NCBI GenBank assembly: GCA_023898625.1
Contig: CP060231.1
Location: 276,258-340,257 of the forward strand
From: Candidatus Nomurabacteria bacterium
GTDB lineage: Bacteria > Patescibacteriota > Saccharimonadia > Saccharimonadales > JAGQNJ01
Direction: 5' to 3'
Length of the DNA stretch: 64,000 bases
Position numbers and translations under genes: made by a program. Under the pieces are notes generated by a model. It worked only from the letters and a program-made list of their open reading frames with translations. It was not told the DNA's origin and searched no databases. Numbering within the stretch: the first letter of the stretch is position 1; every line of letters starts with the position of its first letter. Of the stretch, positions 39,191 through 64,000 are shown piece after piece.

Positions 39191-39883
39191 ATGAGTGAGA
39201 GCCTACACAAACCAACTATTGCTATATTAGCCTCAGGAAGTGGCTCTACAGCCGAGACATTTATCCACGCTACTCAAGATGGTCGTGTTGATGCAGAAGT
39301 CGGTCTAATAGTATGCAATAACCCACCAGAAAAGGCAGGAATATTTGCTAGGGCTTCTAGGTTAAATGCACTCTATGGGCTTGATGTTGAAACTATAGAA
39401 ATAAGTGGTCGTACGCACCCCGATGGCAACGTGGGGCGTGGACAAACACTTAGCGAGTCATCTGCTATATGCGAGCGTATCAGTAACGGTGGCTTTGCTC
39501 ACGTAGCTCTTATGGGTTATATGAAGATGGTTCGCGGTGAACTCATTGAGGAGTACGGCTGGCAACCAATTTACAGTTCTATCTATCAAGCAAGAATGAC
39601 TAACACACACCCAGGTCCACTGCCAGAAACAGAAGACACGTACGGCATACACACTTCTGAACAAGTACTAGAGCTTGGCATGTCTGCTTCACGTCACACA
39701 GTACATCTTGTGGCAGATGGAATAGATAGGGGTCCAAAGATTGCTGAACACCCTGTGGAAGTTATTGAAGGCGATACTGCACAGAGTTTGTTTGATAGAG
39801 TTCAAGTAGTAGAAAAGGCAGCATTGCCATACGTTATAGGTAAGTTCCTGCAGGAACAAGGAGGTTATCTTGGCAATTCATGA
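39191..39883 (+). CDS. purN: phosphoribosylglycinamide formyltransferase-like
   Basis: IAILASGSGST N-terminal motif. Formyltransferase core with NTHPGPLP (variant of NIHPSLLP). 230 aa. Confidence 0.75.
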   Translation: MSESLHKPTIAILASGSGSTAETFIHATQDGRVDAEVGLIVCNNPPEKAGIFARASRLNALYGLDVETIEISGRTHPDGNVGRGQTLSESSAICERISNGGFAHVALMGYMKMVRGELIEEYGWQPIYSSIYQARMTNTHPGPLPETEDTYGIHTSEQVLELGMSASRHTVHLVADGIDRGPKIAEHPVEVIEGDTAQSLFDRVQVVEKAALPYVIGKFLQEQGGYLGNS

Positions 39884-42707: not shown

Positions 42708-43490
42708 ATGAGCAACCTAGAAGTATGCGTACTAAAGACGGACGGTATTAACTGTGATGAAGAAATGGCGAATGCTTTTCAAGTAGCTGGGGCTACACCT
42801 GAAACCGTACATATTAACCAACTGCGAAGTGGCGAACGTCAGCTTGACCAGTACGGTATTCTAGCAATACCAGGGGGTTTCTCTTACGGAGATGATATTG
42901 CTTCAGGTAAGGTGCTGGCAACAGAGCTTACGTCCTATCTATCTGACCAGTTACAAGATTTTGTCGATAAAGGTAAGCCTGTTATCGGAATCTGTAATGG
43001 CTTTCAGGTGCTTGTTAGGACTGGCTTGTTGCCAAATCGCAAGCTGAATGAACAACAAGTAACTCTTGCTGATAATGAAGTTGGAAGATTTGAGTGTCGC
43101 TGGATTGACCTAGCAGTTGGTCGGTCAGCGTGTAAGTTTGTAAGTCCAGAAGATTTTGCAGAACAACCAATTCCAATGCAAACGGCTCACGGTGAAGGTA
43201 GATTCTTTGGTGGTGAAGATGACATTCGGGAGCTAAAAGAAAACGGACAGTTTGTTTTTCGTTATACTACGCCTGACTTAGGACAGCCGAGTGGCTATCC
43301 TGAAAATCCAAATGGTGCAGTAGACGATATTGCAGGAATTTGTGACCCAAGTGGCTTAGTGCTTGGTATGATGCCACACCCTGAACGCTCAGTGGCTGCT
43401 TTTCACCCACACCGAGTACGCACAGAAGCTGCACGAAACGCAGCAAACACAATTTTTAGTAATATCGTTACTTACGCAAAGGAGATGTAA
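42708..43490 (+). CDS. purQ: phosphoribosylformylglycinamidine synthase glutaminase subunit
   Basis: Class I glutamine amidotransferase motifs (PGGFSYGDD, GICNGFQ, MPHPER). Confidence 0.9.
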   Translation: MSNLEVCVLKTDGINCDEEMANAFQVAGATPETVHINQLRSGERQLDQYGILAIPGGFSYGDDIASGKVLATELTSYLSDQLQDFVDKGKPVIGICNGFQVLVRTGLLPNRKLNEQQVTLADNEVGRFECRWIDLAVGRSACKFVSPEDFAEQPIPMQTAHGEGRFFGGEDDIRELKENGQFVFRYTTPDLGQPSGYPENPNGAVDDIAGICDPSGLVLGMMPHPERSVAAFHPHRVRTEAARNAANTIFSNIVTYAKEM

Positions 43491-44623
43491 TGACTGAACG
43501 AAGAGGACCGATACAGGATGTAAATATTGAGCTTGGTGATGATGTTTCTAAAATGCTGTATGAAGCTTCAAAGCAAACCCACGACAACCGACCAGGCTTG
43601 CTTGTTGAGTTTCACGAATCATTTTCTGGGCTACGAGCAATTCCAGGCACGATGCTTAAAGACGTAGATAATATGTATCTTAATCTTGCATTTGATGGTG
43701 TCGGAACAAAGGTTGAAGTATCAGAAAGGCTTGATGACCATTCAGTTGTAGCACACGATTTATTTGCAATGGTATGTGATGACGCAGTTGTTCGGGGAGC
43801 TGAACCAGTTGCGATAGGCTCAATCTTAGATGTACGGCAGCTTAATGACACAAAACACACTAGAACGGCAGTTAGACAACTATCACAGGGCTATGTTGAA
43901 GCAGCTAAGGCGGCTGGTGTAGTGGTCGTTAATGGTGAAGTTGCCGAACTTGGGGATAGAGTTGGTGGTTATGGGGATTTCAATTATAACTGGGGCGCTA
44001 CGGTACTTTGGTTTGCTCATAAGGACAGAATACTTACGGGTCATGAGATTCAGCCTGGCGATTCACTAGTAGGTCTTGCTGAACACGGTTTCCGCTCAAA
44101 TGGCATTACAGACGTAAGAAAAGCTATGCTGGAACACTACGGACCACAATGGCAAGACGTAGTAGTTAAAGAACTCGGCGAACTTTCATTAGGTAAACTT
44201 GTACAGAAACCATCAATTATTTATTCACGATTCATATCGGAACTTACAGGTGGCTATGACATTGATAAAGAGCCTAAGGCTGTGGTAAGCGGTGTGGCAC
44301 ACATTACTGGTGGTGGGCAGCCAAGTAAGCTAGGCCGAATGCTTGAGCCGTCAGGACTCGGCGTTACTATTGACACACCAATTGAGCCACCACGCATAAT
44401 GACGGAAGTGCAAAAGCTGCGAGGCTTCTCCGACGAAACAGCATACGGTAAATGGCATTTGGGTTCTGGTATGGTTATTGCCACTTCTGAACCAGAAAAA
44501 GTACTCGCAGAAGCAGAAAGCTTTGGACTATCTGCACAGACTATTGGGCAAATCACAGACGAGCCAGGTATCCGTATCAAGAATCGTGGTGCAGTTCAAG
44601 ATTCAGAGTGGCTAAGCTTCTAA
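43490..44623 (+). CDS. purM: phosphoribosylformylglycinamidine cyclo-ligase (AIR synthase)
   Basis: DGVGTK motif and PurM N/C domain architecture. Start overlaps the purQ stop (TAATG). Confidence 0.85.
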   Translation: MTERRGPIQDVNIELGDDVSKMLYEASKQTHDNRPGLLVEFHESFSGLRAIPGTMLKDVDNMYLNLAFDGVGTKVEVSERLDDHSVVAHDLFAMVCDDAVVRGAEPVAIGSILDVRQLNDTKHTRTAVRQLSQGYVEAAKAAGVVVVNGEVAELGDRVGGYGDFNYNWGATVLWFAHKDRILTGHEIQPGDSLVGLAEHGFRSNGITDVRKAMLEHYGPQWQDVVVKELGELSLGKLVQKPSIIYSRFISELTGGYDIDKEPKAVVSGVAHITGGGQPSKLGRMLEPSGLGVTIDTPIEPPRIMTEVQKLRGFSDETAYGKWHLGSGMVIATSEPEKVLAEAESFGLSAQTIGQITDEPGIRIKNRGAVQDSEWLSF

Positions 44624-46498: not shown

Positions 46499-48043
46499 AT
46501 GAATACCCAGCCAGGTTCACACTTTAAAAAACGAACACCTTTCATTATTGTTACGTTACTGGTTGGGATTGTTGGCTGTGTTATCCTGCTACAAAGCTAT
46601 GCTGCGGTCCCAAATCCTCCCTCCGTATATTTAACTCCAGAAAATACCGCCAATGGCCCTGGTAAGCAAGTAAGAATTCAAGTTAGAGAAAACAGCGGAA
46701 CAGCCGCAATAAACGCAACCGAGGTTGCTATTACATACCCTGCAAACTTGATAGAGTTTAATTCGTTTGATGACACCGGAAGTTTATTTTTGACTAAACC
46801 TGACCCTGTAATTACGAGCGGAAAAGTCGTCCTAAGTCGAGGTATTAACGCTGGTACCAGCAATTTAACAGGCGACCAACTAATAACTACTTTAGTCTTT
46901 ACAACAAAAACTTCGTCTGGAACCGCTAATCTTGCTATTGTTGCAAATGAAACTTCTGTACTTAACGCCACAACTTATCAAAACATTATTACAGGAAGTG
47001 GTCGAACCCAAGGCGCAAACGTAGTTGTCGATGCCACTCCGCCAACTGTATCGGTGACGGGTACATCAAATAATCAAGTTCTGTCTAGCAATTCTACTGT
47101 TCCTATAAATATCAATACTACAGATGCAACTGGCGCAACAAGACTAGATATACGTATTGATGGCAAAACTGTTTTGGCTCCAAATATAACCAGTCCAACC
47201 TACATCTTTCAATGGAATACGACTGGGTTAAGTATTGGCAACCATACTATCCAAGTTCTAGCTAGTGATTCATACGGTAATACTGGCCAATCTGCAATCA
47301 CTACGGTTTCTATTGCCGACAAGACACCACCAACAGTCGCCCTAACTGTACCATCAAGTCCACTAAAAGGTGTTGTTACGTTAAGTGCAACTGCTTCTGA
47401 TAGTGGCGGTTCTGGATTAAATAGAGTAGAGTTCTATGCTGGGTCAACCCTTATTGGTTCAGATAATACAAGCCCTTATCAAGTATCCTGGAATACTAAT
47501 GATGGAAAGTACGCCGATGGTTCATATAGTATCACAGCAAAAGCCTATGATAACGCCAACCCCTCGAACACTTCTACTAGTACACCATCTAATGTCACGG
47601 TTCAAAATACCGACAAAACACCTCCTTCAGCCCCAACAAATCTTAATGTTAAATCGGTCACCATGAATAGTGTCAATCTGGCTTGGAATGCTAGCTCTGA
47701 CAATGTTGGAGTAACGGGGTACCAAGTTAGTAGAAATGGTACGGTAATAAATACCGTAGCAGGAACATCATTTACAGACAACAACCTTACTCCAGGGACA
47801 AGCTATTCGTATTCTGTAGTTGCAATCGACGCAGGAGGCAATAAGTCCGCTCAAGTCAGCGTAAATGCAACAACTCTCGCTCAAAAGATCGGGGACTTCA
47901 ATCAAGATGGCAAAGTATACCTAGATGACCTAGCAGGACTGCTAGCAAATTGGAAAAAGGCAAATCCACTATACGACCTAGATAAGAAGGGGTCTGTTGA
48001 TATTGTTGACCTTGCTATATTCCTTGCAAACTATGGCAAGTAA
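46499..48043 (+). CDS. surface protein: cohesin-like domain, two Ig-like repeats, FN3 domain, C-terminal dockerin
   Basis: AGGAG RBS and a signal/TM segment. FN3 (PPSAPTNL...WNASSDNVGVTGYQV). Dockerin EF-hand-like duplicate (DFNQDGKVYLDDL ... DLDKKGSVDIVDL). Confidence 0.7.
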   Translation: MNTQPGSHFKKRTPFIIVTLLVGIVGCVILLQSYAAVPNPPSVYLTPENTANGPGKQVRIQVRENSGTAAINATEVAITYPANLIEFNSFDDTGSLFLTKPDPVITSGKVVLSRGINAGTSNLTGDQLITTLVFTTKTSSGTANLAIVANETSVLNATTYQNIITGSGRTQGANVVVDATPPTVSVTGTSNNQVLSSNSTVPININTTDATGATRLDIRIDGKTVLAPNITSPTYIFQWNTTGLSIGNHTIQVLASDSYGNTGQSAITTVSIADKTPPTVALTVPSSPLKGVVTLSATASDSGGSGLNRVEFYAGSTLIGSDNTSPYQVSWNTNDGKYADGSYSITAKAYDNANPSNTSTSTPSNVTVQNTDKTPPSAPTNLNVKSVTMNSVNLAWNASSDNVGVTGYQVSRNGTVINTVAGTSFTDNNLTPGTSYSYSVVAIDAGGNKSAQVSVNATTLAQKIGDFNQDGKVYLDDLAGLLANWKKANPLYDLDKKGSVDIVDLAIFLANYGK

Positions 48044-49588: not shown

Positions 49589-49681
49589 GGAGAGGTACCC
49601 AAGTGGCTGAAGGGGACGGTTTGCTAAATCGTTAGGGGGGAGAGATCTCCCGCGAGGGTTCGAATCCCTCTCTCTCCGCCA
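49589..49681 (+). tRNA. tRNA-Ser (anticodon GCU), CCA encoded
   Basis: Manual fold: acceptor GGAGAGG/TCTCTCC, anticodon loop TTGCTAA, long variable arm, T-arm GAGGG-TTCGAAT-CCCTC. Confidence 0.9.
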
Positions 49682-49694
49682 TTAACATACACCA

Positions 49695-49784
<90 letters not shown>

Positions 49785-51870: not shown

Positions 51871-52554
51871 TTAAGTTGTGTAACAAAAAACTATAGCATC
51901 GACTTTTCTGACGCCATTTTCTTTCAATACCTTGGTTGCTTCTGATAGTGTTGCACCGGTTGTGACCACATCATCAACCAATATAACGTGGCTTGGCGTA
52001 TCACCATCACCCGATTTATATCTGAAAGATCCCTTTATTTGCTGTTTTCTCAACGATCTATTTGACCCGACTTGGTGAATGTTGGTTGTTCTCCTTAGAA
52101 TATTCTCGACCTTAAGTCCGGTTTGCTTCGACAATTCATTAGCCAATATTACAGTCTGATCAAAACCACGCTGACGAATATGAGAGGGTATTGTAGGTAT
52201 CGGCACCAGGAATACCTCTTCTGAAGATGGGTAGTAGGGAAGAATGTTGGCCATCGACTTGGCAATTGGCAAACCAACATGACGTTTATAGCCAAATTTA
52301 AATGCTTTGATTAGTTGCTGATTGATGTCTTTGTACTCACCATAAACATACACCGCATTTAGTTTTGTGTTTTTGCGACACTTTATACATACTTTGTGGT
52401 CTTTTGTAATTGAGTGACACAAGAAACATCTACTAGGCAAGGGATCGTATTGTAACCTACAATTATCGCACCAAATTATTCCCTCACTATTACACTCTAG
52501 GCATACCTCTGGAGCTATAAAATCTAATATCCTGGTTAATATAGTTGTTGTCAT
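51871..52554 (-). CDS. comFC: ComF-family phosphoribosyltransferase-domain protein
   Basis: N-terminal Cys4 zinc-finger-like motifs. C-terminal PRTase motif ILVDDVVTTGATL. Confidence 0.8.
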   Translation of the reverse strand: MTTTILTRILDFIAPEVCLECNSEGIIWCDNCRLQYDPLPSRCFLCHSITKDHKVCIKCRKNTKLNAVYVYGEYKDINQQLIKAFKFGYKRHVGLPIAKSMANILPYYPSSEEVFLVPIPTIPSHIRQRGFDQTVILANELSKQTGLKVENILRRTTNIHQVGSNRSLRKQQIKGSFRYKSGDGDTPSHVILVDDVVTTGATLSEATKVLKENGVRKVDAIVFCYTT

Positions 52555-52680: not shown

Positions 52681-53184
52681 ATGGCGCGTAAGCAACGAGA
52701 TGATGATTTGTTGATGGAAGATGAGCTTACTGCCGCATTCTTGGGTGAGGATGAATTTGAAGAAACTGCGGTTATTCAAGAACAAGACACGGATCAAGAT
52801 CCACAACAAAACCAAACACCATTACCTGCTCAGGATGAATGGGATGAAGAGGAAGCTGTTCCTGGACAGCTAGCAGTAGACGTTTTTGAGACTAAAGAAA
52901 AACTTGTGGTTAAGGCTAGGACGGCCGGTGTAAACAAGCACGATCTTGATGTCAGTATTGCAGACAATACACTGAGCATCCGTGGAACATTATCAGCAGG
53001 GAATGAAGATGATGTAATTAATTATTTTGTGCAAGAATGTTATTGGGGAGAGTTTTCTCGTAGCCTAGCATTACCAATTGCCGTAAAAGAAGATGAAATT
53101 GAGGCAGTCCTAAAAGATGGTGTATTGACTATTTCTTTCACTAAAGTAAAACAAGATACCGTTAAAAAGATCCAGATTCAATAA
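52681..53184 (+). CDS. Hsp20/alpha-crystallin small heat-shock protein
   Basis: Acidic N-terminus followed by an alpha-crystallin domain (AVDVFETKEKLVVKA...GV.K.DLDVSI..N.L.I.G ... LP.). Confidence 0.85.
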   Translation: MARKQRDDDLLMEDELTAAFLGEDEFEETAVIQEQDTDQDPQQNQTPLPAQDEWDEEEAVPGQLAVDVFETKEKLVVKARTAGVNKHDLDVSIADNTLSIRGTLSAGNEDDVINYFVQECYWGEFSRSLALPIAVKEDEIEAVLKDGVLTISFTKVKQDTVKKIQIQ

Positions 53185-53221
53185 ATACTACATATCAAAT
53201 GTAAGTATGCCATTTTAAAAA

Positions 53222-53248
53222 TAACCCTAAAACTAGGGTTATTTTTTT
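53222..53248. terminator. rho-independent terminator, probably bidirectional (hsp20 and pilin operon)
   Basis: TAACCCTA-AAAC-TAGGGTTA followed by T7 and preceded by an A-run. Confidence 0.8.
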
Positions 53249-53267: not shown

Positions 53268-53672
53268 CTATGTAGTTGAAACTTTATTAAGAACAAACTT
53301 GACAATTACTTGAGCAAGAGCGACGATCACTAATCCAACTATCGCATAAAGAATAGTATTTTTTGCTCCACTGACGTTTCCAGAATCGCCCCCAGAAGTG
53401 ATGTACTTAAGCCCTCCGACGATTATCATAATAACCGAAACAACACCTACTATTAACGAAAATATATTGATAACGGTAGCTATTATGTCATTGACTGTAC
53501 CTTCTGCGCCACTTACATCACAGCTCTGATCGGTACTCAAACAGCTTCCTTGTTCAAGGCCTTGTTGAATATTTGGTGTTTGAGCATGAATACTCACCGG
53601 AATAGCTAGAGGTACTAGCGCTAAAGAAAGGCTGATGAGCCAGGCGTTTATTTTATTAGTTAACTTTTTCAT
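53268..53672 (-). CDS. T4SS pilin-like protein (TrbC/VirB2-like), paralog 6
   Basis: Signal peptide and a Cys pair (CLSTDQSC). Conserved C-terminal block GGLKYITSGGDSGNVSGAKNTILYAIVGLVIVALAQVIVKFV. Confidence 0.7.
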   Translation of the reverse strand: MKKLTNKINAWLISLSLALVPLAIPVSIHAQTPNIQQGLEQGSCLSTDQSCDVSGAEGTVNDIIATVINIFSLIVGVVSVIMIIVGGLKYITSGGDSGNVSGAKNTILYAIVGLVIVALAQVIVKFVLNKVSTT

Positions 53673-53749
53673 AATATTAGGTATTTTCCTTTCGTTATTG
53701 GATTAATTACACTTTACTATATTTTTATAAGCATTTTCAAGTAGTTATT

Positions 53750-54160
53750 CTATAATTTATTAAGAACAAATTTAACGATAGCTTGCGCCATAGCGACAAC
53801 CACCAATCCAATAATTGCATATAGGATGGTGTTTTTGGCGCCACTAACGTTAGCAGAATCGCCCTGAGATGTTATATATTTAAATCCACCAATTATTATC
53901 ATTATTACCGCTGTGATTCCCACTATCCAAGAAAAAATATTAATAACCGTGGCTATAGTACTGTTTATTTTTCCTTCTGTTGCACTAGAATCAGTAGTAC
54001 AACTACCTCCTGTTAGGGTAACACCCTGGCAAGCCGCTTCCTTCGGATCTAAGGCTCTTACTGAAGCTGTATGCAAGGATACACCCAAAAATGTCATGAC
54101 TAACATCAAAATAAAAATTGTCATTCTTATTCTCATAATCTTATCCTTTCGTTTAATCAT
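53750..54160 (-). CDS. T4SS pilin-like protein, paralog 5
   Basis: Same C-terminal block (GGFKYITSQGDSANVSGAKNTILYAIIGLVVVAMAQAIVKFV). The alternative start at 54136 has an AAAGGA RBS. Confidence 0.7.
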   Translation of the reverse strand: MIKRKDKIMRIRMTIFILMLVMTFLGVSLHTASVRALDPKEAACQGVTLTGGSCTTDSSATEGKINSTIATVINIFSWIVGITAVIMIIIGGFKYITSQGDSANVSGAKNTILYAIIGLVVVAMAQAIVKFVLNKL

Positions 54161-54546
54161 TATAGTCTAGTTATTACAAATGACACTATTGCTTGAGCTA
54201 TCACAACAACCACTAGGCCAATAATTGAGTACAGGATTGTGTCTTTTGCGGAACTAACTTTTCCGGAATCTCCATTCGACACCATATACTTGAAACCACC
54301 CACCATTATCATTATAACGCTGGCAACCCCTGCAATCATAATCATTATTTCTATAACCTTAGTAATTATTCCGTTTGGACCAAGTAGTGGGTTAGTGGTA
54401 GTGTGCGTCTGGCATGCGCTTGAACTGGAGCTACGACCACTGCAAACTCCTGAAAAAGGATCCTCAGCATAGGTTATTCTTGGATAAAAGACAATCAGCC
54501 CGATCAATAACCCTATTACAGTAATTACAAGTGTCAGCCTACTCAT
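54160..54546 (-). CDS. T4SS pilin-like protein, paralog 4
   Basis: GGFKYMVSNGDSGKVSSAKDTILYSIIGLVVVVIAQAIVSFV. Cys pair CSGRSSSSSAC. Confidence 0.7.
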   Translation of the reverse strand: MSRLTLVITVIGLLIGLIVFYPRITYAEDPFSGVCSGRSSSSSACQTHTTTNPLLGPNGIITKVIEIMIMIAGVASVIMIMVGGFKYMVSNGDSGKVSSAKDTILYSIIGLVVVVIAQAIVSFVITRL

Positions 54547-54845
54547 CCGAATACCCTCCCAATCACAAAAGATACAATTACATTTGCTAGAATAGCAACC
54601 ACCAGCCCGATCAAAGCATAAAGTATGGTGTTTTTAGCTTTGGCGGTCTTTTGAGGGTCTCCAGCAGAAAGTATATAGCTTATTCCTGCAATGATAATCA
54701 CGATAACCGCAACCACTCCTGCAATAGTAAATACCAACTGCAACAAGACCTCAATCTGTCCGTTTGTAGCTTCGGACTTAGGAATAACCAATTCGTTTGG
54801 GTTGGCTATACTTTCAGCAATATATTTTAAATACATGTCTATCAT
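54543..54845 (-). CDS. T4SS pilin-like protein, paralog 3 (short)
   Basis: AGISYILSAGDPQKTAKAKNTILYALIGLVVAILANVIVSFV. 4-nt overlaps with both neighbours. Confidence 0.65.
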   Translation of the reverse strand: MIDMYLKYIAESIANPNELVIPKSEATNGQIEVLLQLVFTIAGVVAVIVIIIAGISYILSAGDPQKTAKAKNTILYALIGLVVAILANVIVSFVIGRVFG

Positions 54846-55213
54846 TTTATGCTATTTCCGATAAATGACACTACAGAAGATGCAACAATAGCTACTACTA
54901 AACCAATTAGAGCATTCAATATGGTATCTTTAGCCCCCTTAGTTCGATCTGGCTCCCCATTGCTTGTCATGTATACAAAGCCTCCGTATATAATAAAACC
55001 AACCGACACAAACCCGACAACATAAAGCAGTATATCGATCCCCGCTAGGCCAATTCCCCATAAATCGTTAATCTGGTTGGGATCGAATGTTGGTACGCAT
55101 TTTCCTAAAGCATCAGTTTTACCATCAAGATATTCAAACCAATGCGGAAACCCAAAGAACGAGTTTGCTGAATCCATTGGATTACAGGCAAATATTTTAA
55201 ATAGACCGATCAA
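54842..55213 (-). CDS. T4SS pilin-like protein, paralog 2
   Basis: GGFVYMTSNGEPDRTKGAKDTILNALIGLVVAIVASSVVSFI. Confidence 0.65.
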   Translation of the reverse strand: MIGLFKIFACNPMDSANSFFGFPHWFEYLDGKTDALGKCVPTFDPNQINDLWGIGLAGIDILLYVVGFVSVGFIIYGGFVYMTSNGEPDRTKGAKDTILNALIGLVVAIVASSVVSFIGNSIK

Positions 55214-55908
55214 AATGCACCCCCTGGTATCAGGTATTGAATAAACGCATAAAGGAAGAAATATGCTACTAAAGCAATTATAGCATTAGTAATTTTTCCT
55301 TTGGCGGCCTGCACAGCCTGTGGATTTTGACCTGCAGATGCATACTGAATCCCACCAACAATAATCATAATCGTTACTACAACACCAACGCCAATGGATA
55401 GAAAATTCATCGCCATTTTCGTGTATTTAACAAGTGGGTTATCCTTTATACATGACGGGGAGTCACAGTTCACGATCTTGTCACGATCTTTATCGGTATA
55501 TACTGACGTTGTATCAAAGTTAGTATTATCATCGTTATTCTTGGCGGAGTTAGTATTGTTTTTAGATGCAACTGCGTTTTCTTGAACAACTTGAGACATA
55601 GGCTTGGCATTAATATATTCATTAATCTCACAGTTAACTTCGTTACCCTTCTTGGTGGCATCGGATCCCCAGGCATAACATTTAGTATTGCTTTCTAAGG
55701 GATTCGGCAGACCTTTCATATTAAAACCCATGTTCTTTAAGTTCTGATAATCACAACTATCTAGCTTAACGATCTGGTTTCCCTCACTAATTCGCACAAA
55801 ACAACCACTCACAGCACTTACGGTTGCTTTAGTCGCCACAAAACATCCCAAAATAGCGATAATATAAACTAGTGTAGCGCCCAATCTTTTATTAAGTAGT
55901 TTGCCCAT
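55210..55908 (-). CDS. T4SS pilin-like protein, paralog 1, with extended Cys-containing N-terminal domain
   Basis: Signal peptide and a ~150-aa Cys-containing domain. C-terminal block GGIQYASAGQNPQAVQAAKGKITNAIIALVAYF. Confidence 0.6.
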   Translation of the reverse strand: MGKLLNKRLGATLVYIIAILGCFVATKATVSAVSGCFVRISEGNQIVKLDSCDYQNLKNMGFNMKGLPNPLESNTKCYAWGSDATKKGNEVNCEINEYINAKPMSQVVQENAVASKNNTNSAKNNDDNTNFDTTSVYTDKDRDKIVNCDSPSCIKDNPLVKYTKMAMNFLSIGVGVVVTIMIIVGGIQYASAGQNPQAVQAAKGKITNAIIALVAYFFLYAFIQYLIPGGAF

Positions 55909-55914
55909 GATAAA

Positions 55915-56394
55915 TTATGCCTCTATCCTGATAGCTTCTATTTTATCACTGTTTATTATCTCTAGGTTTACACTATTACCATCTCTTGTTTGGCAATTAT
56001 AATAATGGCTCGTCTTGCTTTGTTCGCCCTGTTTCGTCTCTGTTTCTTTGCAAGTAGCAAAATCAATACTACCTCTTAAGCGCAGTAATGCACCTACGGC
56101 CATTGTCTGGTTTGATTGCAGATCATCAGACAATAGTTCCCTAGCTTTCGCCAGATTAACCTCATCCACTGTCGACATTGCTTGAAGAAACTGCACATTG
56201 GCAGATGCATTCGGATCAATGTTAGCCACTTTTTGTTGCTTGTTGTTTCCAAAGATAACTCCAAATGCTGTGATAATCAACAGAAGAATCAACATAATGC
56301 CCAAGATTTTCACCTTCGTAGAAACCCTGTTCTTTACCGGTACGCTAGGTTGCTGATTTATGAAATCAAAATTCAAATCTGTTTTTTGAGCCAT
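55915..56394 (-). CDS. hypothetical single-pass membrane protein, first gene of the pilin operon
   Basis: 159 aa. TM (ILGIMLILLLIITAFGVIF). Confidence 0.5.
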   Translation of the reverse strand: MAQKTDLNFDFINQQPSVPVKNRVSTKVKILGIMLILLLIITAFGVIFGNNKQQKVANIDPNASANVQFLQAMSTVDEVNLAKARELLSDDLQSNQTMAVGALLRLRGSIDFATCKETETKQGEQSKTSHYYNCQTRDGNSVNLEIINSDKIEAIRIEA

Positions 56395-56486: not shown

Positions 56487-57347
56487 ATGAAAACACCAGC
56501 ATACATAATAAGAAAGAATATATTCGTCGCGGTTTTATGTTCTTTAGTGAGCGCTTCTGTACTATCAATATTATTTCAACCAGTTACCATTTATGCTGCC
56601 GATATAGAATTCGAAAAGTCGGTTGAATACAAGATTATTGAGGATTGCTCCAAAACAAACGACCCACAATGCATTTACAAACATTGGGGAGGAAACACAA
56701 ATATGATACAGGCAGGAAATGAATGTCAATACAAAAAAGAACCCCAAAGATGCAGAGATAGCAAATTGCTTGCGTTAGAAATTAATGCAAAGTACCGCCC
56801 CAAACAAAACACAAATCCAGAATCTGAACAAGAAGATCAAAGCAACCCTATTGAAAATTCCTATCCAAACACCAAGTGCTTTACGGCACTTGGAGGGGTT
56901 TTGCAAGAAAAGCTTTGCCCTAAAGATGCCACATACCCAAATGGAAACCCCCCAGAGACAAATAAGTGTTATGGATCACAGGTAACTGAAGATAATAATA
57001 GGCCTTTGTATGAAGAAGTTGATTGTGATAAAAGTAAATTTTCTGTTGGTGCGTATGGTGAAGAAAAGAAAGAAGATGAAAGTAATCCTTCAGAATGCCA
57101 ACAACGCATGAAACTAAGTGCTGGCTGGATTGTGTGTAGTGGGTTAGAGTTACTTTCTAGTGGCATGGATACTTTGTTTGGCTATATAGATAGTTTGTTG
57201 AATGTTAACGTAATAAAACTGAATGCTTCTGATGATCAGGGGTTATATAAGTCTTGGTCATATTTTAGGGGTATAGCTACGTTTATGTTGTTTGCTGTAG
57301 GTTTAGTTATGATTATTGGTCAGGCTGTTGGGGGAGGGAAGAATTAA
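56487..57347 (+). CDS. Cys-rich secreted protein with C-terminal membrane-anchor module (T4SS-associated)
   Basis: Signal peptide and many Cys residues. The C-terminal 78 aa are identical to those of the next gene. Confidence 0.6.
   Translation: MKTPAYIIRKNIFVAVLCSLVSASVLSILFQPVTIYAADIEFEKSVEYKIIEDCSKTNDPQCIYKHWGGNTNMIQAGNECQYKKEPQRCRDSKLLALEINAKYRPKQNTNPESEQEDQSNPIENSYPNTKCFTALGGVLQEKLCPKDATYPNGNPPETNKCYGSQVTEDNNRPLYEEVDCDKSKFSVGAYGEEKKEDESNPSECQQRMKLSAGWIVCSGLELLSSGMDTLFGYIDSLLNVNVIKLNASDDQGLYKSWSYFRGIATFMLFAVGLVMIIGQAVGGGKN
57108..57341 (+). repeat. 234-bp direct repeat, copy 1 (pairs with 58321-58554)
   Basis: Hand alignment gives 5 mismatches in 234 nt. All are transitions and all are synonymous. 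Confidence 0.9.
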
Positions 57348-57411: not shown

Positions 57412-58557
57412 TTGAATAAAACTATATCTTTACTTTTTTTAATTCTTTTTTCAATGTCAATGACATTTGGGTTTATATCACCGTATGTTATAAGTAGTGT
57501 CCGTGCTCAAGAAGCCACACTAACTGATACTCTATCAAGAGAAGCGAGGCTTTATACCGTTACTAACGCATTGGTCGCATGTTTTCAGGGTCAAACGGGC
57601 GAGGGATTAAGTTCCGAAACTACCACAAATAACCTAAGTTCGGAATTACCAGTCTTTATTAATCAAAAGGTATTTGTTGGACATCATGTTAAGCCAAGTG
57701 ACGGCAACGCAAATTGCAATGACGCTTCCTGGGTGTCAAGCGCCGTGAACATGGTAGGGTTTTCTAGTAATACAGCCTTTATGAATCTCTTTTATGAAAA
57801 AAATAGCGGAAACTTTTGGCAACTTAAAGTCCCGGTTGCATCTGGAGAGGTCAATGTCATTAACCAGTTTTTAAATAAATCAATCGAAGGTGGCAACACA
57901 ACTGTGACATGTACGCCTAAGAATGGATGTACAGTCAGCATATCAGATGCCGCAAAATATGTACTTTATCTAGAAAACCTCAAAAAGGGTTGTGGCGCAA
58001 CCGAAGTCAATAATGAAGACGATATTAATAGTATTGATGAAGACAAAAAGGCGGTCATTAAAGTTCCTAACGCTAATGCTATCCTGGAAGAAAAAGTCTA
58101 TAAAATGGATAAAGGTAAGGGGAAGTTTATAGATGTTGGTCAAGGTCTTGCACAAGACGGAAACTTATCGTGCGGAACATTAATTGACAAGATAAACCAG
58201 TATGCATCTGGCTTTAATGATAGACTGGTGCAAGCTAAAAACAACAATCAAGACATCGGAGACCTTTCTTCACTAACAAGCACTGGCTCTGGTGAAAATG
58301 AAGAAAGTTGTGAAGAGCGTATGAAACTAAGTGCTGGCTGGATTGTATGTAGTGGGTTAGAGTTACTTTCTAGTGGCATGGATACTTTGTTTGGCTATAT
58401 AGATAGTTTGTTGAATGTTAACGTAATAAAACTGAATGCTTCTGATGATCAGGGATTATACAAGTCTTGGTCATATTTTAGAGGTATAGCTACATTTATG
58501 TTGTTTGCTGTAGGTTTAGTTATGATTATTGGTCAGGCTGTTGGGGGAGGGAAGTAA
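57412..58557 (+). CDS. secreted protein with the same C-terminal membrane-anchor module (T4SS-associated)
   Basis: TTG start and a signal peptide. The N-terminal ~300 aa are unrelated to the previous gene; the C-terminal 78 aa are identical. Confidence 0.6.
   Translation: MNKTISLLFLILFSMSMTFGFISPYVISSVRAQEATLTDTLSREARLYTVTNALVACFQGQTGEGLSSETTTNNLSSELPVFINQKVFVGHHVKPSDGNANCNDASWVSSAVNMVGFSSNTAFMNLFYEKNSGNFWQLKVPVASGEVNVINQFLNKSIEGGNTTVTCTPKNGCTVSISDAAKYVLYLENLKKGCGATEVNNEDDINSIDEDKKAVIKVPNANAILEEKVYKMDKGKGKFIDVGQGLAQDGNLSCGTLIDKINQYASGFNDRLVQAKNNNQDIGDLSSLTSTGSGENEESCEERMKLSAGWIVCSGLELLSSGMDTLFGYIDSLLNVNVIKLNASDDQGLYKSWSYFRGIATFMLFAVGLVMIIGQAVGGGK
58321..58554 (+). repeat. 234-bp direct repeat, copy 2
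   Basis: See copy 1. Confidence 0.9.
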
Positions 58558-60278
58558 TGTTTGATGCCTATACTATCAAAAAAGTATTGCCAAGATTGGT
58601 TATAGCCGTGATCTTAATTCAATTATCTTGGCCACTAATAACCACCTTGATAAATGTTATTAATCAAGTATCTTGGGGTTTAGAAGGACTCATGTATTTG
58701 CCTTTTGGAGGTAGAGATGCGTTAGATATAGGAGTAACTCTTGAGAAGGCTGGTGGAGGTGGTACCTTTGCTGGATTATTACTAGGTGGTGGGGCATATC
58801 TTTTGGCGGGTGCGCCTGGAGCTCTGGCTTTAGCCGTTGGTATTTTAGTAGCTTTAGTTGTTGCGTTCTTTACTTTAGCTATTAGACAAATTATTATTAT
58901 TGCCCTGGTATTGACAGCTCCGTTGGCACTTGTGGCATGGATATTACCCAACACAGAAGGATTCTTTAAGTTTTGGTGGAGCACGCTCAGCAAGGCTCTA
59001 CTAATGTATCCAATTATTTTACTACTTGTAGCGGCAGGTAGAATTGGCGCGCACCTAGTTGTGGCGACTGATCTGCCCTCGGGCGTACAAACTATCTTGG
59101 CAATCATTATATTCTTTGCACCATTATTCTTAATATCTAAGACTTTCCAATACGCTGGTGGGGCGATTGGAGCTGTTGCCAACGTTGTTGGCTCTAAGGG
59201 TTCAAAAATTACCGGTTGGGCAGGCAAACGCTCTACGGCCAAGCAAGGACAAAAATGGGGTGCTCGTAAAGAAAAATTCCAGTCAGGTGGCTATGGGTCT
59301 GATAAAAATATGTTTACTCGTGGCTTAAGAAGGGCTGGGCAAATGTCTGGGCAGTCAGTTTGGACTGGTTATGGCATGACAGGGAAAGGTAAACAAAGGA
59401 TGGCTCTTGCCTCCAGCGCATCTGCTAACGAACTTCTCAAGGATGGAAAGTTTGTTGAAGCTACCTACGATGATGATGCCAGACTTGCGCTTCAGCTTGG
59501 TAGCGAAAAAGCTGCACGAGCCACACTTCTCGCAAACGCAGAAAGAAAAGCTCGAAGCGAAGGAAGAAGTGTCCGAGCAGACGAACTAGCTAAAATTGAT
59601 AAAAGTATTAATGCAGCAAAGGCTGTTGGATTCAATTCCCACACTCAGCTTGCTGCCCTAAAAGCCGAGGCATCGAACAAAGGCCGAAACTACAAAGGTT
59701 TGGCTGGGATCGATGAGCTTAATAGCAGAATTGATGCAGTGGCGGCAGCTACTGGCGTTAATGCAGAAGACTTGCGGAGCGAAGTTACATATGGCATGCG
59801 TACCCAAGGTGGGAGATTTGATCTTGGTGCACTTGACTCAAGCAAGTCAGCATCCGAACAAGCAATTGCAGGATGGAACAAAGGTTCTCTCTATCAACAC
59901 GCTGGCTCACAAGCCAACTCCTTTGATACTATACATGAAGCGTTTCTCGATCGTGGTGACGATGATGCTCTTGCAGTATTTCACGAAGAATCACAGGCCA
60001 TTCTACCAAACGCAACCGGAGATGTAGCTGGAAAAATCGAAGAGGTCGTGGGAGATGGCAGTAGCACACATCACCGTGTTGAAGCACACTATGAAGCAGG
60101 ACCCAAAAAGGATGTACATCCAAAGATGCAAGAGACAACAACCAATCCAACAACTGGCGCTCAAGAAACTAGGGTGGTTGAAGATCCTACAAGAACAGTT
60201 ACAGTACGAGAAAAAGAAGCAGAAGCCAAACAAAATGCAAGAACATACAAGTCTCAAAACCCTAATGAAATGGAGTAG
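58557..60278 (+). CDS. VirB6/TrbL-like polytopic T4SS membrane protein
   Basis: About 6-7 TM segments in the N-terminal 230 aa, then a long hydrophilic C-terminal tail. Position within the T4SS operon supports the call. Confidence 0.55.
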   Translation: MFDAYTIKKVLPRLVIAVILIQLSWPLITTLINVINQVSWGLEGLMYLPFGGRDALDIGVTLEKAGGGGTFAGLLLGGGAYLLAGAPGALALAVGILVALVVAFFTLAIRQIIIIALVLTAPLALVAWILPNTEGFFKFWWSTLSKALLMYPIILLLVAAGRIGAHLVVATDLPSGVQTILAIIIFFAPLFLISKTFQYAGGAIGAVANVVGSKGSKITGWAGKRSTAKQGQKWGARKEKFQSGGYGSDKNMFTRGLRRAGQMSGQSVWTGYGMTGKGKQRMALASSASANELLKDGKFVEATYDDDARLALQLGSEKAARATLLANAERKARSEGRSVRADELAKIDKSINAAKAVGFNSHTQLAALKAEASNKGRNYKGLAGIDELNSRIDAVAAATGVNAEDLRSEVTYGMRTQGGRFDLGALDSSKSASEQAIAGWNKGSLYQHAGSQANSFDTIHEAFLDRGDDDALAVFHEESQAILPNATGDVAGKIEEVVGDGSSTHHRVEAHYEAGPKKDVHPKMQETTTNPTTGAQETRVVEDPTRTVTVREKEAEAKQNARTYKSQNPNEME

Positions 60279-60286
60279 GTTAATAA

Positions 60287-61243
60287 ATGGCGCAGTATAA
60301 AGTAATTCAAGATATCGAATCAGAAGACAAGCTACTTGGTCCGTTAAGCTTGCGACAATTTATCTACGCGGCGATCACTATCGCTCTGGGTTTTGTAGCT
60401 TTTAAGTTATTTATTAGTAGTGCTTGGTTTTTAGGCATAGTTTTTGTTCCGCCAGCACTATTTTTTGGCTTGTTAGCAGCGCCACTAGGTGGGCAACAAT
60501 CTTCTGAAATTTGGTTGCTAGCCAAAATACGTTTTTTTATTATGCCACGCAAACGAATTTGGGATCAATCTGGTATTCAGCAATTAGTCACCATAACAGC
60601 CCCTAAAAAGGTCGAAAAACAACTTACTAAAGGTTACAGTCAAGATGAGGTCAAGAGTCGCTTAAGAACACTGTCAGCCACCTTAGATACTAGAGGTTGG
60701 GCAGTAAAAAATGCCACCAATATGTATGCTGTTGGACAGAACCAATCTAGTGACAGACTTTTTGAGATAGACACGCAGGATATTCCGTCAATCAGCACAG
60801 AGCCAACTGCCGATATGCTAGACCCCACCACCAGCCCCAGAGCTCAAGCTATGGATCAGATGATTAACAAATCCGCCCAGGAGCACAAGCAACAAATAGA
60901 AGAAAACCTTAAAAAATATTCTCAAAAGCTGTCTAACCAAACCAGGGTTGCGCCACCATCAGAACAACAAGAGCAAGATCTTCTCAAGAAAATTCATGCT
61001 CAGCAATCACAGCCTAGTGAATTTAATAGTCGTTTAAAAACCATTAACCCGATCGGGGACCAACAAACTCAAATCACAAAAACTCAAAGTCCTGTCCATT
61101 CACCAGTGACACCAACGACCGACCCTGCTATACTAAATCTTGTCGAGAATAGCGAAGGACTTTCTGTTAGAACTATTGCACACGAGGCTGAACGCCTCAA
61201 GAAGCGCGATGATGACGATGAGGTTGTTATTTCGCTTCATTAG
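60287..61243 (+). CDS. PrgI/VirB3-like T4SS membrane protein
   Basis: The N-terminal pattern Y.V..DIE.EDKLLGPLSLRQFIY followed by two TMs is typical of the PrgI family. Q-rich C-terminal extension. Confidence 0.55.
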   Translation: MAQYKVIQDIESEDKLLGPLSLRQFIYAAITIALGFVAFKLFISSAWFLGIVFVPPALFFGLLAAPLGGQQSSEIWLLAKIRFFIMPRKRIWDQSGIQQLVTITAPKKVEKQLTKGYSQDEVKSRLRTLSATLDTRGWAVKNATNMYAVGQNQSSDRLFEIDTQDIPSISTEPTADMLDPTTSPRAQAMDQMINKSAQEHKQQIEENLKKYSQKLSNQTRVAPPSEQQEQDLLKKIHAQQSQPSEFNSRLKTINPIGDQQTQITKTQSPVHSPVTPTTDPAILNLVENSEGLSVRTIAHEAERLKKRDDDDEVVISLH

Positions 61244-61279: not shown

Positions 61280-62155
61280 ATGAATCCAGATCAGAATCAA
61301 CCACAATACCCCATACAAACTCCAGCCAGTCCTGGCGCTCAAGCATACCCCCAACCAGGGATGGTATCGCCCCTCAACAATCAGCAAAATACCCCACCCA
61401 ACCAACAAACCTTTGCTAACACCAAAACCAACCCTAATAGCACCCAGAATACTCTACAGTTTGCTGAAATTCGTGATGGAATAGTAATCATGAACGATGG
61501 TTCATTCCGTTCAGTTATCATGCTAAAATCTATTAACTTTGATTTAATGAGCCCCCAGGAAAGAGAAGCAGTCGAGGCTGCCTATCAAAACTTCTTGAAC
61601 TCGTTATACTTTGATGTTCAAATATTTATCCGCTCTGAGCGAATCGATATTCGTCCTTATATTGAAAGATTAGACAAAATTAGGAGCGAGCACGACAACA
61701 TGCTTCTAGCCATGTTAATGGAAGATTATATTGGGTTTATTACAGAAGTATCGATGCAGACTAATATTATGGACAAACGATTTTACTTAGTTATTCCATT
61801 TTATGCTAAAGCTGATGTTAAGAAAGCAATTACTCAGAGTAAAAACTTCTTTACTGGATTAACTAATCTGTTCAACAATAAAGAACAGCATGTCGTGGTG
61901 AATGAAGCAGATCTAGGAGCGGCCAAAAGCGAGTTAAGAAATCGCATTCAAGCAGTATTGGCTAGTTTGCAACAATGTGGTGTGCAGGGTGTTCCCTTAG
62001 ATACTCAAGAATTAATCGAACTGTATTACGATACTTACAACCCTGACACTGCAACACGTCAACAGTTAAAGAATTTTGATGATTTAGCCGTACCAGTCGT
62101 AACTAAGGGCGAGGGTCACGCCCCTCAACCTAATTTAGATAAGGAGCTTAGATAA
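61280..62155 (+). CDS. hypothetical protein resembling a VirB4 N-terminal domain (no ATPase domain)
   Basis: After a P/Q-rich N-terminus, the segment LQFAEIRDGIVIMNDGSFRSVIMLKSINFDLMSPQERE resembles the start of Gram-positive VirB4-like proteins. Confidence 0.35.
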   Translation: MNPDQNQPQYPIQTPASPGAQAYPQPGMVSPLNNQQNTPPNQQTFANTKTNPNSTQNTLQFAEIRDGIVIMNDGSFRSVIMLKSINFDLMSPQEREAVEAAYQNFLNSLYFDVQIFIRSERIDIRPYIERLDKIRSEHDNMLLAMLMEDYIGFITEVSMQTNIMDKRFYLVIPFYAKADVKKAITQSKNFFTGLTNLFNNKEQHVVVNEADLGAAKSELRNRIQAVLASLQQCGVQGVPLDTQELIELYYDTYNPDTATRQQLKNFDDLAVPVVTKGEGHAPQPNLDKELR

Positions 62156-64000
62156 TGGCCTTCGGCAAAAAACAACAACCACTTGACCCGGTAGCTATTG
62201 CCCAACAACAAGCAATGCGCGAACAACAAGAGGTTAACACAGCTTTTCAAAAAGGTGTGACTGCTCTTCGTGATTTTATTGCCCCGAGTTCATTGGAGTT
62301 TAATTCTTCGTATTTCCAAATCGGAACAAGGCATGCTAGAACATTTTATGTTTTCGGTTACCCTAGACAGCTTTATACCGGATGGCTGAGTAGCTTGATA
62401 AACATTGATGAGATTATTGATATGTCTATGTTCATCTACCCGGTTGAAAGCCAGGTGGTGTTAGAGAACCTTCGCAAAAAGGTTAGCCAATTAGAGGCTG
62501 GCTTACAAATTGATGCCGAGAAGGGAAGGGTTCGTGACCCAGGCAAGCAGGCAGCCATTGTGGATGCTGAAGAAATGCGAGACAAACTTCAAGTTGGTGA
62601 AGAACGGTTCTTTAGGTTTGGCTTTTACTTTACGATTTACGCTAGTAGCCTTGATGAATTAGAATTCGTAACGCATAAAATTGAATCACTTCTTGGCCAA
62701 CAGTTAGTTTATTCTAAGCCCGCGACTTCACAACAAGAACAGGGCTTGAGTAGTACAGTTCCACAATTCACCGATCAGCTTCAAATTAAACGAAACATGA
62801 GCACTGGAGCATTGAGCACTACCTTTCCGTTCACTAGTGCCGACCTTACCCAAGAAAACGGCATTATGTATGGCATAAACATGCATAACTCTGGCTTGGT
62901 GATTTTTGATCGATTTAGCCTAGAAAACAGTAACGCGGTAGTTTTTGCAAAATCCGGTGCCGGGAAATCCTTCACTGTTAAACTTGAAGCTTTGCGAAGT
63001 ATGATGTTTGGAACAGAAGTTGTGATTATAGATCCGGAAAACGAATATCAACGCATGGCCGAAGCTGTTGGTGGTGCATATGTACGTCTTAGCCTAAACT
63101 CCTCAACGCGCATTAATCCTTTTGATTTACCAAGAGTAGTCGACACCGAAGAAGCTGACAATGCACTGCGTAGCAACTTAATCACACTACATGGTTTATT
63201 ACGATTAATGATGGGTGGCGCTCAAGCTCAAATGCAATCTGGGGGTGGCATGGTTGCCCCCGCTCTTAGCCCTGTAGAAGAAGCCGATCTGGACGCCGCC
63301 TTGATTGAAACTTATGCCAAAGCCGGAATCACCAATGACCCCCTAACACACAACTCACCACCACCAACAATAAACGACCTCTATGATACGCTTCTACATA
63401 TGGGTGGAACGGGGCCTCAGCTTGCTCAAAGATTAAGGAAGTACACTAGTGGTACATTCGCTGGTATTTTCTCTCAGCAATCAAATATTGACATCAATAA
63501 TCAGTTAGCTGTGTTTAATATCCGCGATCTTGAAGATGAGCTACGACCAGTAGCAATGTATATAGTACTGAATTTCATATGGAACAGAACAAAAGCAGAC
63601 AAAAAGAAACGTATTTTAATCGTAGACGAGGCGTGGCAACTAATGAAGTATGAAGACTCTGCTAATTTTATGTTTAGCCTAGCAAAACGAGCTCGTAAGT
63701 ATAATCTAGGCATCACAACTATAACTCAGGATGTGGAAGATTTCATGGGAAGTCGAATGGGGCGAGCGATTGTTGCTAACTCATCACTACAAATACTACT
63801 CAAGCAATCGCCTTCTGCGGTTGATGTTTTAGCCGATGTTTTTAAGTTAACAAGTGAGGAACGAAAACGACTCAGTCAGTTCCCGGTTGGTCAAGGATTA
63901 TTTTTTGCCGGACAAAATCATGTTCATATTCAAATTATGGCTAGCCCAACCGAGACTCAGCTAATCACCACCAACCCAAAACAAGTTCAACAAATTCAGG
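62155..64000 (+). CDS. virB4: VirB4/TrbE/PrgJ-like T4SS ATPase, partial (continues beyond the right window edge)
   Basis: ATG overlaps the upstream TAA. My translation gives Walker A AKSGAGKSFTVK (around 62950) and Walker B RILIVDEAWQL (around 63610). Absent from the ORF track because no stop lies in the window. Confidence 0.85.
   Translation, partial: MAFGKKQQPLDPVAIAQQQAMREQQEVNTAFQKGVTALRDFIAPSSLEFNSSYFQIGTRHARTFYVFGYPRQLYTGWLSSLINIDEIIDMSMFIYPVESQVVLENLRKKVSQLEAGLQIDAEKGRVRDPGKQAAIVDAEEMRDKLQVGEERFFRFGFYFTIYASSLDELEFVTHKIESLLGQQLVYSKPATSQQEQGLSSTVPQFTDQLQIKRNMSTGALSTTFPFTSADLTQENGIMYGINMHNSGLVIFDRFSLENSNAVVFAKSGAGKSFTVKLEALRSMMFGTEVVIIDPENEYQRMAEAVGGAYVRLSLNSSTRINPFDLPRVVDTEEADNALRSNLITLHGLLRLMMGGAQAQMQSGGGMVAPALSPVEEADLDAALIETYAKAGITNDPLTHNSPPPTINDLYDTLLHMGGTGPQLAQRLRKYTSGTFAGIFSQQSNIDINNQLAVFNIRDLEDELRPVAMYIVLNFIWNRTKADKKKRILIVDEAWQLMKYEDSANFMFSLAKRARKYNLGITTITQDVEDFMGSRMGRAIVANSSLQILLKQSPSAVDVLADVFKLTSEERKRLSQFPVGQGLFFAGQNHVHIQIMASPTETQLITTNPKQVQQIQ

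Follow-up and report, generated by a model that had tools for sequence, protein, structure and literature searches.

Why should a type IV secretion system (T4SS) locus carry six pilin genes in a row? The question is raised by a 64,000-nucleotide stretch of DNA (the window), a chromosome segment of the 939,581-bp contig CP060231.1 from a metagenome-assembled genome (MAG) named 'Candidatus Nomurabacteria bacterium' at NCBI. Six tandem minus-strand genes lie at window positions 53268–55908. A first reading of the sequence (the original prediction) took them for VirB2-like pilin paralogs and offered three functions: a heteropolymeric fibre, minor and tip pilins, or surface variation.

Arrays of this kind were already published between 2023 and 2025 (Wang 2023, PMC10633639; Quinonero-Coronel 2025, PMC12102498; FEMS review 2025, PMC12857230); the window is a further example, not a discovery. 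Southlakia epibionticum ML1 has six consecutive genes of Pfam family PF18895, SEML1_0014–0019, encoding proteins of 132, 185, 103, 126, 127 and 138 aa (Wang 2023, PMC10633639). Each was scored GD/ES/ES (essential) by transposon sequencing (Tn-seq), and the T4SS locus has neither relaxase nor coupling proteins (PMC10633639). A survey found 441 arrays of 2–11 pilin genes in 383 Patescibacteria assemblies and, drawing a parallel with Bartonella and Anaplasma, proposed that pilin variety helps adaptation to host strains (Quinonero-Coronel 2025, PMC12102498).

The answer that we favour, and hold to be probable, is that the six window genes form a conserved pilin array of a chromosomal, monoderm-type (MPF-FATA-like) T4SS of Saccharimonadia and encode the subunits, none of them redundant, of a single heteromeric fibre or stalk. 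The last gene in transcription order would encode the bulk subunit, the fourth and fifth major-like subunits, and the first three minor ones.

The six genes and their junctions

The genes are numbered p1 to p6 in transcription order. All six ORFs (open reading frames) are intact over the predicted interval and span the predicted range of 100–232 aa.

55210..55908, minus strand: p1, 232 aa
54842..55213, minus strand: p2, 123 aa from a TTG start (111 aa from the ATG at 55177)
54543..54845, minus strand: p3, 100 aa, the shortest paralog
54160..54546, minus strand: p4, 128 aa
53750..54160, minus strand: p5, 136 aa (128 aa from the ATG at 54136)
53268..53672, minus strand: p6, 134 aa

Taken as longest ORFs, p1 to p5 overlap successively by 4, 4, 4 and 1 nt, and a 77-nt gap separates p5 from p6. 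At p2/p3 and at p3/p4 the overlap is ATGA, preceded at p4 by the Shine-Dalgarno run GGGAGGG. The original prediction of four overlaps of 1–4 nt thus holds for the longest ORFs; three of them we would keep, and the p4/p5 junction is more likely a gap. Public gene calls begin p2 at its internal ATG, giving 111 aa. The 4-nt p1/p2 overlap probably stands nonetheless, because a Shine-Dalgarno-like run (GGGGGTG) precedes the TTG start and because that start restores a conserved cysteine: the first Cys of the p2 pair lies upstream of the internal ATG, and the pair is present in 26 of 31 p2 orthologs. (Orthology statistics throughout are from 31 genomes with complete six-gene arrays; spacer and promoter counts are from 34 species.) For p5, the ATG at 54136 follows a Shine-Dalgarno site (ACGAAAGGA) and is more probably the start, so that p4 and p5 would be separated by 21 nt instead of overlapping by 1 nt. 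The six genes are tightly packed under either choice of starts.

Family membership and predicted structure

Alignment of the six proteins gives a common C-terminal core of about 75 aa with nine invariant columns, in agreement with the C-terminal block originally noticed. Core identity to p6 is 78, 60, 47, 41 and 31% across the five other paralogs, the highest value being that of p5; p5 and p6 also form a 238-nt DNA repeat with 71% identity. The paralog that strays most from the consensus block of the original prediction is p1 (GGIQYASAGQNPQAVQAAKGKITNAIIALVAY).

All six proteins score above the gathering cut-off (26.6 bits) of the T4SS_pilin family PF18895, with E-values from 4e-7 to 4e-16: p1 30.3, p2 33.8, p3 59.2, p4 41.6, p5 49.0 and p6 49.0 bits. 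The second-best family is TrbC/VirB2 (PF04956; p4 28.7, p5 24.8, p6 24.6, p3 24.0 and p2 14.1 bits; no match for p1), whose gathering cut-off of 27.9 bits is passed by p4 only; many homologs carry a precomputed PF04956 match. With T4SS genes adjacent as well, the VirB2-like identity first proposed is borne out, and the profile hidden Markov model (HMM) search suggested as a check returned the T4SS pilin family and no unrelated membrane-protein family. Among p1, p2, p3 and p6, which were scanned against the NCBIfam model NF045849 (cut-off 40 bits), p3 scores 52.5, p2 39.4, p6 30.8 and p1 24.1 bits.

Each product has the VirB2/TrbC-like form of a helical hairpin, in which a short polar loop with an invariant A-K links two hydrophobic helices. 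In the AlphaFold2 model of p6, a signal helix (2–23) and a disordered segment (24–55), within which the Cys pair lies, precede a hairpin of helices 56–92 and 97–133, the core having a pLDDT confidence of ~80–89. The p1 model has a small beta-rich domain at 33–110 (pLDDT ~75–86), an Asn-rich disordered linker at 112–138 and a hairpin of helices 158–191 and 196–226. Foldseek searches with the p6 and p1 models found nothing in the PDB at E <= 0.001, an archaeal conjugation pilus (8dfu) appearing only at E = 6. Because a bare hairpin is uninformative, this null result neither supports nor refutes similarity to VirB2. A sequence-profile search of the PDB gave a single weak match (E ~0.1) to an unrelated cytochrome bd subunit II; the same chance resemblance would account for the 'cytochrome bd' names that some homologs carry at JGI. 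A tblastn search of p3 against 72,556 plasmids found no match and thus gave no link between the family and known Gram-positive conjugative plasmids.

N-terminal regions

The paralogs differ in what precedes the core. Signal peptides were judged by a hydropathy rule rather than a dedicated predictor. By this rule, a signal-like hydrophobic N-terminal region is present in 28–31 of the 31 orthologs of p1 and p4–p6 (31/31 for p4 and 31/31 for p5), is weak in p2 (8/31) and occurs in one p3 ortholog (1/31).

The cysteine pairs CLSTDQSC (p6), CQGVTLTGGSC (p5) and CSGRSSSSSAC (p4) are found as the original prediction listed them. Two cysteines are present in 27/31 orthologs of p4 and 29/31 of p5, and the combination of a signal peptide with exactly two Cys in the mature tail characterizes p4–p6 in 27–30 of 31 species. 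The N-terminal tail of p2 has a conserved FPHWFEYL motif and a Cys pair and lacks a strong signal peptide; that of p3 is ~26 aa long and has no signal peptide.

The extra N-terminal region of ~150 aa attributed to p1 is real and holds three Cys pairs. The protein consists of a signal peptide, a Cys-rich N-terminal domain and a pilin core terminating in PGGAF. A C..C-NP motif and a PGGxF at the C-terminus are common to its orthologs, and their variable domain, alignable among close relatives only, usually has an even number of cysteines. No Pfam family, NCBIfam family or fold match was found for the p1 N-terminal domain.

Comparison with related species

Is the set of six fixed, or does it vary between species? 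We compared the loci of 80 GTDB species (Saccharimonadales), with VirB4 81–96% identical to that of the window, from at least 571 matches, and scanned them with an HMM of the pilin core. Comparing paralog number had been proposed as a check: six pilin ORFs is the usual number where the whole array lies inside the locus, and a few loci have five or seven.

The best match falls at the same position in 92% of cross-genome comparisons for p1, 96% for p2, 83% for p3, 50% for p4, 46% for p5 and 97% for p6; for p4 and p5, best matches at other positions mostly fall on p6. By this measure positions 1, 2, 3 and 6 are positional orthologs. Between-species core identity of orthologs is 46% for p1, 48% for p2, 45% for p3, 41% for p4, 54% for p5 and 69% for p6, making p6 the most conserved position and the most constrained member of p4–p6. 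The cores of p1–p3 have 25–39% identity to any other position. The identity of p5 to p6 is 67% within a genome versus 58% between genomes (p5 to p5 between genomes, 54%), and this excess within genomes indicates gene conversion or duplication in p4–p6. On these comparisons p1–p3 are old, distinct lineages and p4–p6 a subfamily in which gene conversion or repeated duplication has taken place.

Against the two closest species, the proportion of nonsynonymous differences (pN) is 0.04–0.21 in the cores, where the synonymous proportion (pS) is 0.69–0.93; in the N-terminal tails pN is 0.19–0.50. Even in comparison with the closest species, synonymous sites show saturation (pS 0.61–0.93), and dN/dS ratios are mostly undefined. 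The substitution pattern is that of purifying constraint on all six cores and fast evolution of the N-terminal tails.

These data bear directly on whether most copies might be decaying or unexpressed duplicates of one functional pilin, a condition under which the pilin claim was to be given up. We give this almost no credence. Its sole point in favour is that p1 and p2 have the lowest PF18895 scores. All six frames are intact in related species with the whole array in the locus, pN is far below pS in every core, position-specific motifs are conserved and the Southlakia counterparts are essential; on the strength of the intact frames and the core constraint we rejected a pseudogene reading.

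The same comparison bears on the suggestion that the genes are a repertoire of interchangeable alternative major pilins, broadening host range or evading recognition as proposed for Bartonella and Anaplasma and suggested for Patescibacteria arrays (PMC12102498). In favour of such a repertoire are the fast-evolving exposed N-terminal segments, duplication or gene conversion within p4–p6 and the copy number of five or seven in a few species, and the hypothesis has the standing of a published one. Yet number and order are fixed, p1, p2, p3 and p6 are positional orthologs, and all six counterparts scored essential in Southlakia. Tight packing in one operon also tells against it, since the six genes are then probably co-expressed rather than switched. 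Lineage-specific copy number with interchangeable, non-orthologous copies, as in the Bartonella/Anaplasma type, is not what the loci show; turnover touches p4 and p5 only. Six contigs, each from a different metagenome assembly, moreover carry the 2641-bp array with 100% identity, which is weak evidence because the contigs were retrieved by exact p4 sequence, a look-up biased towards identity. Taken together we think a variation repertoire improbable.

Of the functions first offered, a heteromeric assembly that includes minor or tip subunits is thus favoured and surface variation disfavoured, because the six-gene set is fixed and largely positionally orthologous, its cores are constrained and its Southlakia counterparts are essential.

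Operon layout and the predicted separate promoter of p6

The array ends with a gene that seems set apart in its expression signals. No obligatory non-coding gap exists at the p1/p2, p2/p3 and p3/p4 junctions (0/34 species), whereas one separates p5 from p6 in 32/34 (median 58 nt). The signals in the window are as follows.

53711..53740, minus strand: predicted sigma-70-type promoter in the p5/p6 spacer, by consensus match (TTGAAA, 18 nt, TAAAGT)
53687–53693, minus strand: p6 Shine-Dalgarno site GAAAGGA, in the p5/p6 spacer
53217..53246, minus strand: 13-bp perfect hairpin with A and T runs on either side, between the convergent p6 and Hsp20 genes

A –35/–10 pair is found in the p5/p6 spacer of 33/34 species, 27–38 nt from the ATG, compared with 2% of shuffled sequences, and the p6 Shine-Dalgarno site recurs in 33/34. 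The predicted signals imply that p6 is transcribed with the operon and also alone, as expected for a subunit needed in excess. The hairpin (–17.2 kcal/mol, z = –3.1; 0/200 shuffles fold as well) was missed by a consensus scan and is likely a bidirectional intrinsic terminator shared with Hsp20. We take p6 as the candidate bulk subunit because it is separately promoted, most conserved and last before the terminator.

Fusion proteins with several pilin cores

An exhaustive profile search of 1.84 billion cluster representatives placed 62,350 proteins in the family at E <= 0.001. The best scores belong to single polypeptides from public metagenomes with 2–17 tandem T4SS_pilin cores (P0370–P0382), for example one of 1775 aa with 17 cores. 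One of them, P0370 (552 aa), combines a single signal peptide and a single Cys pair with six cores joined through short linkers, and lies inside a pilin array (locus L087, 1777–3435) with three single pilins before it and one after. Its predicted topology is that of a 12-helix membrane protein with all linkers outside. The existence of such fusions is an argument for the side-by-side packing of several hairpins within a single assembly.

They also raise the question of whether that assembly ever leaves the membrane. The six hairpins might instead form a heteromeric ring or channel of the translocon, with no extended fibre. In favour of this, drawing natural fusions of 2–17 cores (12 or more transmembrane helices) out into a filament would be difficult, signal peptides are missing from p2 and p3, and p3 is above the cut-off for a pilin-like family of a Mycoplasma integrative and conjugative element (ICE). 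We know of no T4SS pilus described in Mycoplasma, and reviews say that monoderm T4SSs generally lack pili. Against a membrane ring, the homology is to the pilus-forming TrbC/VirB2; exposed N-terminal tails with conserved disulfide loops and the adhesin-like p1 domain are easier to place on a surface fibre; and p6, separately promoted and probably abundant, suggests a polymer rather than a 1:1 ring. We regard a membrane-embedded assembly as unlikely, while allowing it a real minority chance.

Proposed assembly

How might a heteromeric fibre or stalk work? The pilins would insert in the cytoplasmic membrane with both ends outside, and signal peptidase would trim p1 and p4–p6. The VirB4, PrgI and VirB6 machinery encoded next to the array would then extract them and polymerize one heteromeric surface fibre or cell-wall-spanning stalk. 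Its bulk subunit would be p6; p4 and p5 would be major-like subunits of the p6 subfamily, each exposing a disulfide-bonded N-terminal loop; and p1–p3 would be low-abundance initiator, adaptor or tip subunits. Contact with the host cell could be made by the fast-evolving Cys-rich domain of p1. If Southlakia is a guide, the organism would need the assembly to grow epibiotically on a host bacterium and not to conjugate.

More tentatively, and with somewhat less than even confidence, we suggest that this is a fixed, specialized subunit set resembling the major/minor division of type IV pili: ancient minor subunits p1–p3, with a variable host-contact domain on p1, and a major-like trio p4–p6 with p6 as the bulk. 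The fusion proteins would mirror the side-by-side packing of these subunits.

Several points weigh against the heteromeric fibre. To our knowledge, filaments have yet to be observed for any T4SS of Patescibacteria or other monoderms. The modelled structures have no significant Foldseek match to solved conjugative pilins, but a bare helical hairpin carries little fold information. Two of the six proteins, p2 and p3, are without a recognizable signal peptide, and positional orthology is blurred for p4 and p5, so some turnover has occurred within the array. The major and minor roles derive from conservation and a predicted promoter. Tn-seq essentiality of p1–p5 could reflect polar effects on downstream genes. 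Finally, the 31–34 genomes compared are one clade (VirB4 81–96% identical), not all Patescibacteria.

Neighbouring genes

The following genes lie around the array.

49589–49784: tRNA-Ser genes, ~2 kb beyond the ComF-like gene
51871–52554: phosphoribosyltransferase/ComF-like
52681–53184: Hsp20, convergent with p6
55915..56394, minus strand: 159-aa single-pass membrane protein, 6 nt upstream of p1
56487–57347 and 57412–58557, plus strand: two secreted Cys-rich proteins (286 aa and 381 aa), divergent from the array, with a common C-terminal transmembrane module
58557..60278, plus strand: VirB6/TrbL-like polytopic membrane protein (PF19590 TrbL_3 on the 610-aa public gene call)
60287..61243, plus strand: PrgI (VirB3-like; PF12666 37.1 bits, cut-off 27)
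61280..62155, plus strand: TrsD/TraC-like protein, similar to the VirB4 N-terminal part (public gene call: PF26593)
62155..64000, plus strand: VirB4 ATPase (Walker A GAGKS), clipped by the window end

The VirB6-like, PrgI, TrsD-like and VirB4 genes all lie within 9 kb of the array, head-to-head with it, and this layout, with the array divergent from VirB6-PrgI-TrsD-VirB4 genes, recurs in the loci of related species. A Pfam scan of the 573-aa VirB6-like ORF gave no match. NCBIfam TrsD and VirB4 N-terminal matches of the TrsD-like protein are below cut-offs. The full VirB4, recovered from locus L001, has 653 aa, and its homologs carry PF19044, PF01935 and PF12846. No VirB5, VirB7, VirB9 or VirB10 was seen in the locus.

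Just upstream of the 159-aa gene is a TGTATAAT motif. The gene, probably the first of the pilin operon and a lineage-specific addition to it, has a product that matches no Pfam or NCBIfam family and has no homolog in 30 other species loci examined. The two Cys-rich genes share a direct repeat (57100–57341 and 58313–58554), their 242-nt 3' ends being 97% identical, which points to recent duplication or gene conversion. Since in several other species both Cys-rich proteins and the VirB6-like protein match one same ORF, an 'extended VirB6' seems to be split here into an N-terminal exported module, present twice, and a polytopic part.

Relation to known systems

The closest counterpart is the ML1 locus. 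It likewise has six tandem PF18895 genes of similar sizes, divergent from VirB6-like, PrgI, TrsD-like and VirB4 genes, and the same convergent Hsp20, ComF-like and tRNA-Ser genes beyond the array (SEML1_0020–0022). The window differs in placing the long N-terminal domain at position 1 rather than position 2, in the lineage-specific 159-aa gene before the array, and in the two separate ORFs that precede its VirB6-like gene. ML1 is cultivated, whereas the window comes from an environmental Saccharimonadales MAG.

The surveyed Patescibacteria arrays are also tandem, near virB4 and especially common in Saccharimonadia, with low identity between array members (PMC12102498). They were treated there as variable, whereas the clade sampled here has a fixed six, the last gene with its own promoter. 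The VirB2 duplicates of Bartonella and Anaplasma are likewise tandem, sequence-divergent paralogs of host-associated bacteria. Those are read as a variation repertoire; the set in the window is fixed and largely orthologous across species, and a set of its type is essential in the sole cultivated relative tested, Southlakia.

Diderm TrbC/VirB2 pilins (Agrobacterium VirB2, RP4 TrbC, F TraA) are similarly small, with two hydrophobic helices and a short loop. VirB3/VirB4-type genes adjoin theirs as they do the window array, and a predicted signal peptide is shared by four of the six window pilins. The window array differs in having six copies instead of one, a monoderm host and predicted disulfide-looped N-terminal tails, in the lack of a signal peptide in p2 and p3, and in reaching the PF04956 cut-off with p4 only.

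Similarity also extends to the Mycoplasma ICE pilin-like family Mbov_0395 (NF045849), whose cut-off p3 passes and p2 almost reaches; that model is named for a conjugative ICE protein, whereas the window has a chromosomal array of six. The TrsD-like protein has a weak match, far below cut-off, to a Mycoplasma ICE VirB4 model. The p3 match and this weak TrsD-like match suggest that a pilin-like hairpin already existed in monoderm MPF-FATA-type systems. MPF-FATA-type classes have been described as lacking VirB2 homologs (PMC12102498), with which the match of p3 to NF045849 is at odds. That a pilus acts as a conduit is offered as speculation in a review (PMC12857230).

Genome of origin

Three GenBank proteins, USN95864, USN95866 and USN95869 (H6793_01740, 01750 and 01765), match window pilins exactly. 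The NCBI name 'Candidatus Nomurabacteria' looks like a misclassification, because the VirB4 and pilins of the window are 81–100% identical to proteins from genomes labelled Saccharibacteria or Saccharimonadales.

Elsewhere in the window are genes for ValRS, ArgRS, GroEL, a Mur ligase, TsaD, purN, purS-L, purQ and purM. The locus is therefore chromosomal, flanked by housekeeping genes; a mobile-element reading was rejected, as the flanking genes scanned are of this kind. No relaxase or coupling protein was found among the window ORFs scanned, which were part of the total.

Two further observations concern the organism. A purine biosynthesis cluster at 39191–44623 (plus strand) encodes a PurN-like formyltransferase, a PurS-PurL fusion (945 aa), PurQ and PurM; de novo nucleotide synthesis is usually said to be absent from Saccharibacteria (PMC10633639). 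A possible surface adhesin is encoded at 46499–48043 (plus strand), ~5 kb away from the array: it has 514 aa and combines Big_7, Big_3_3 and fibronectin type III domains. Fibronectin III-domain proteins are also listed among the envelope proteins essential to Southlakia (Wang et al., PMC10633639).

Implications

Patescibacteria T4SSs are the only monoderm T4SSs reported with VirB2-like pilins, and that of Southlakia is essential for growth on its host. The window adds no new kind of system. What it adds is evidence for a fixed, differentiated subunit set rather than a variable repertoire, together with the multi-core fusion proteins. If this reading is true, a fixed subunit set predicts a defined stoichiometry and non-redundant deletion phenotypes, both testable in the genetically tractable Southlakia, and the array would represent the first heteromeric VirB2-type assembly, and in a monoderm.

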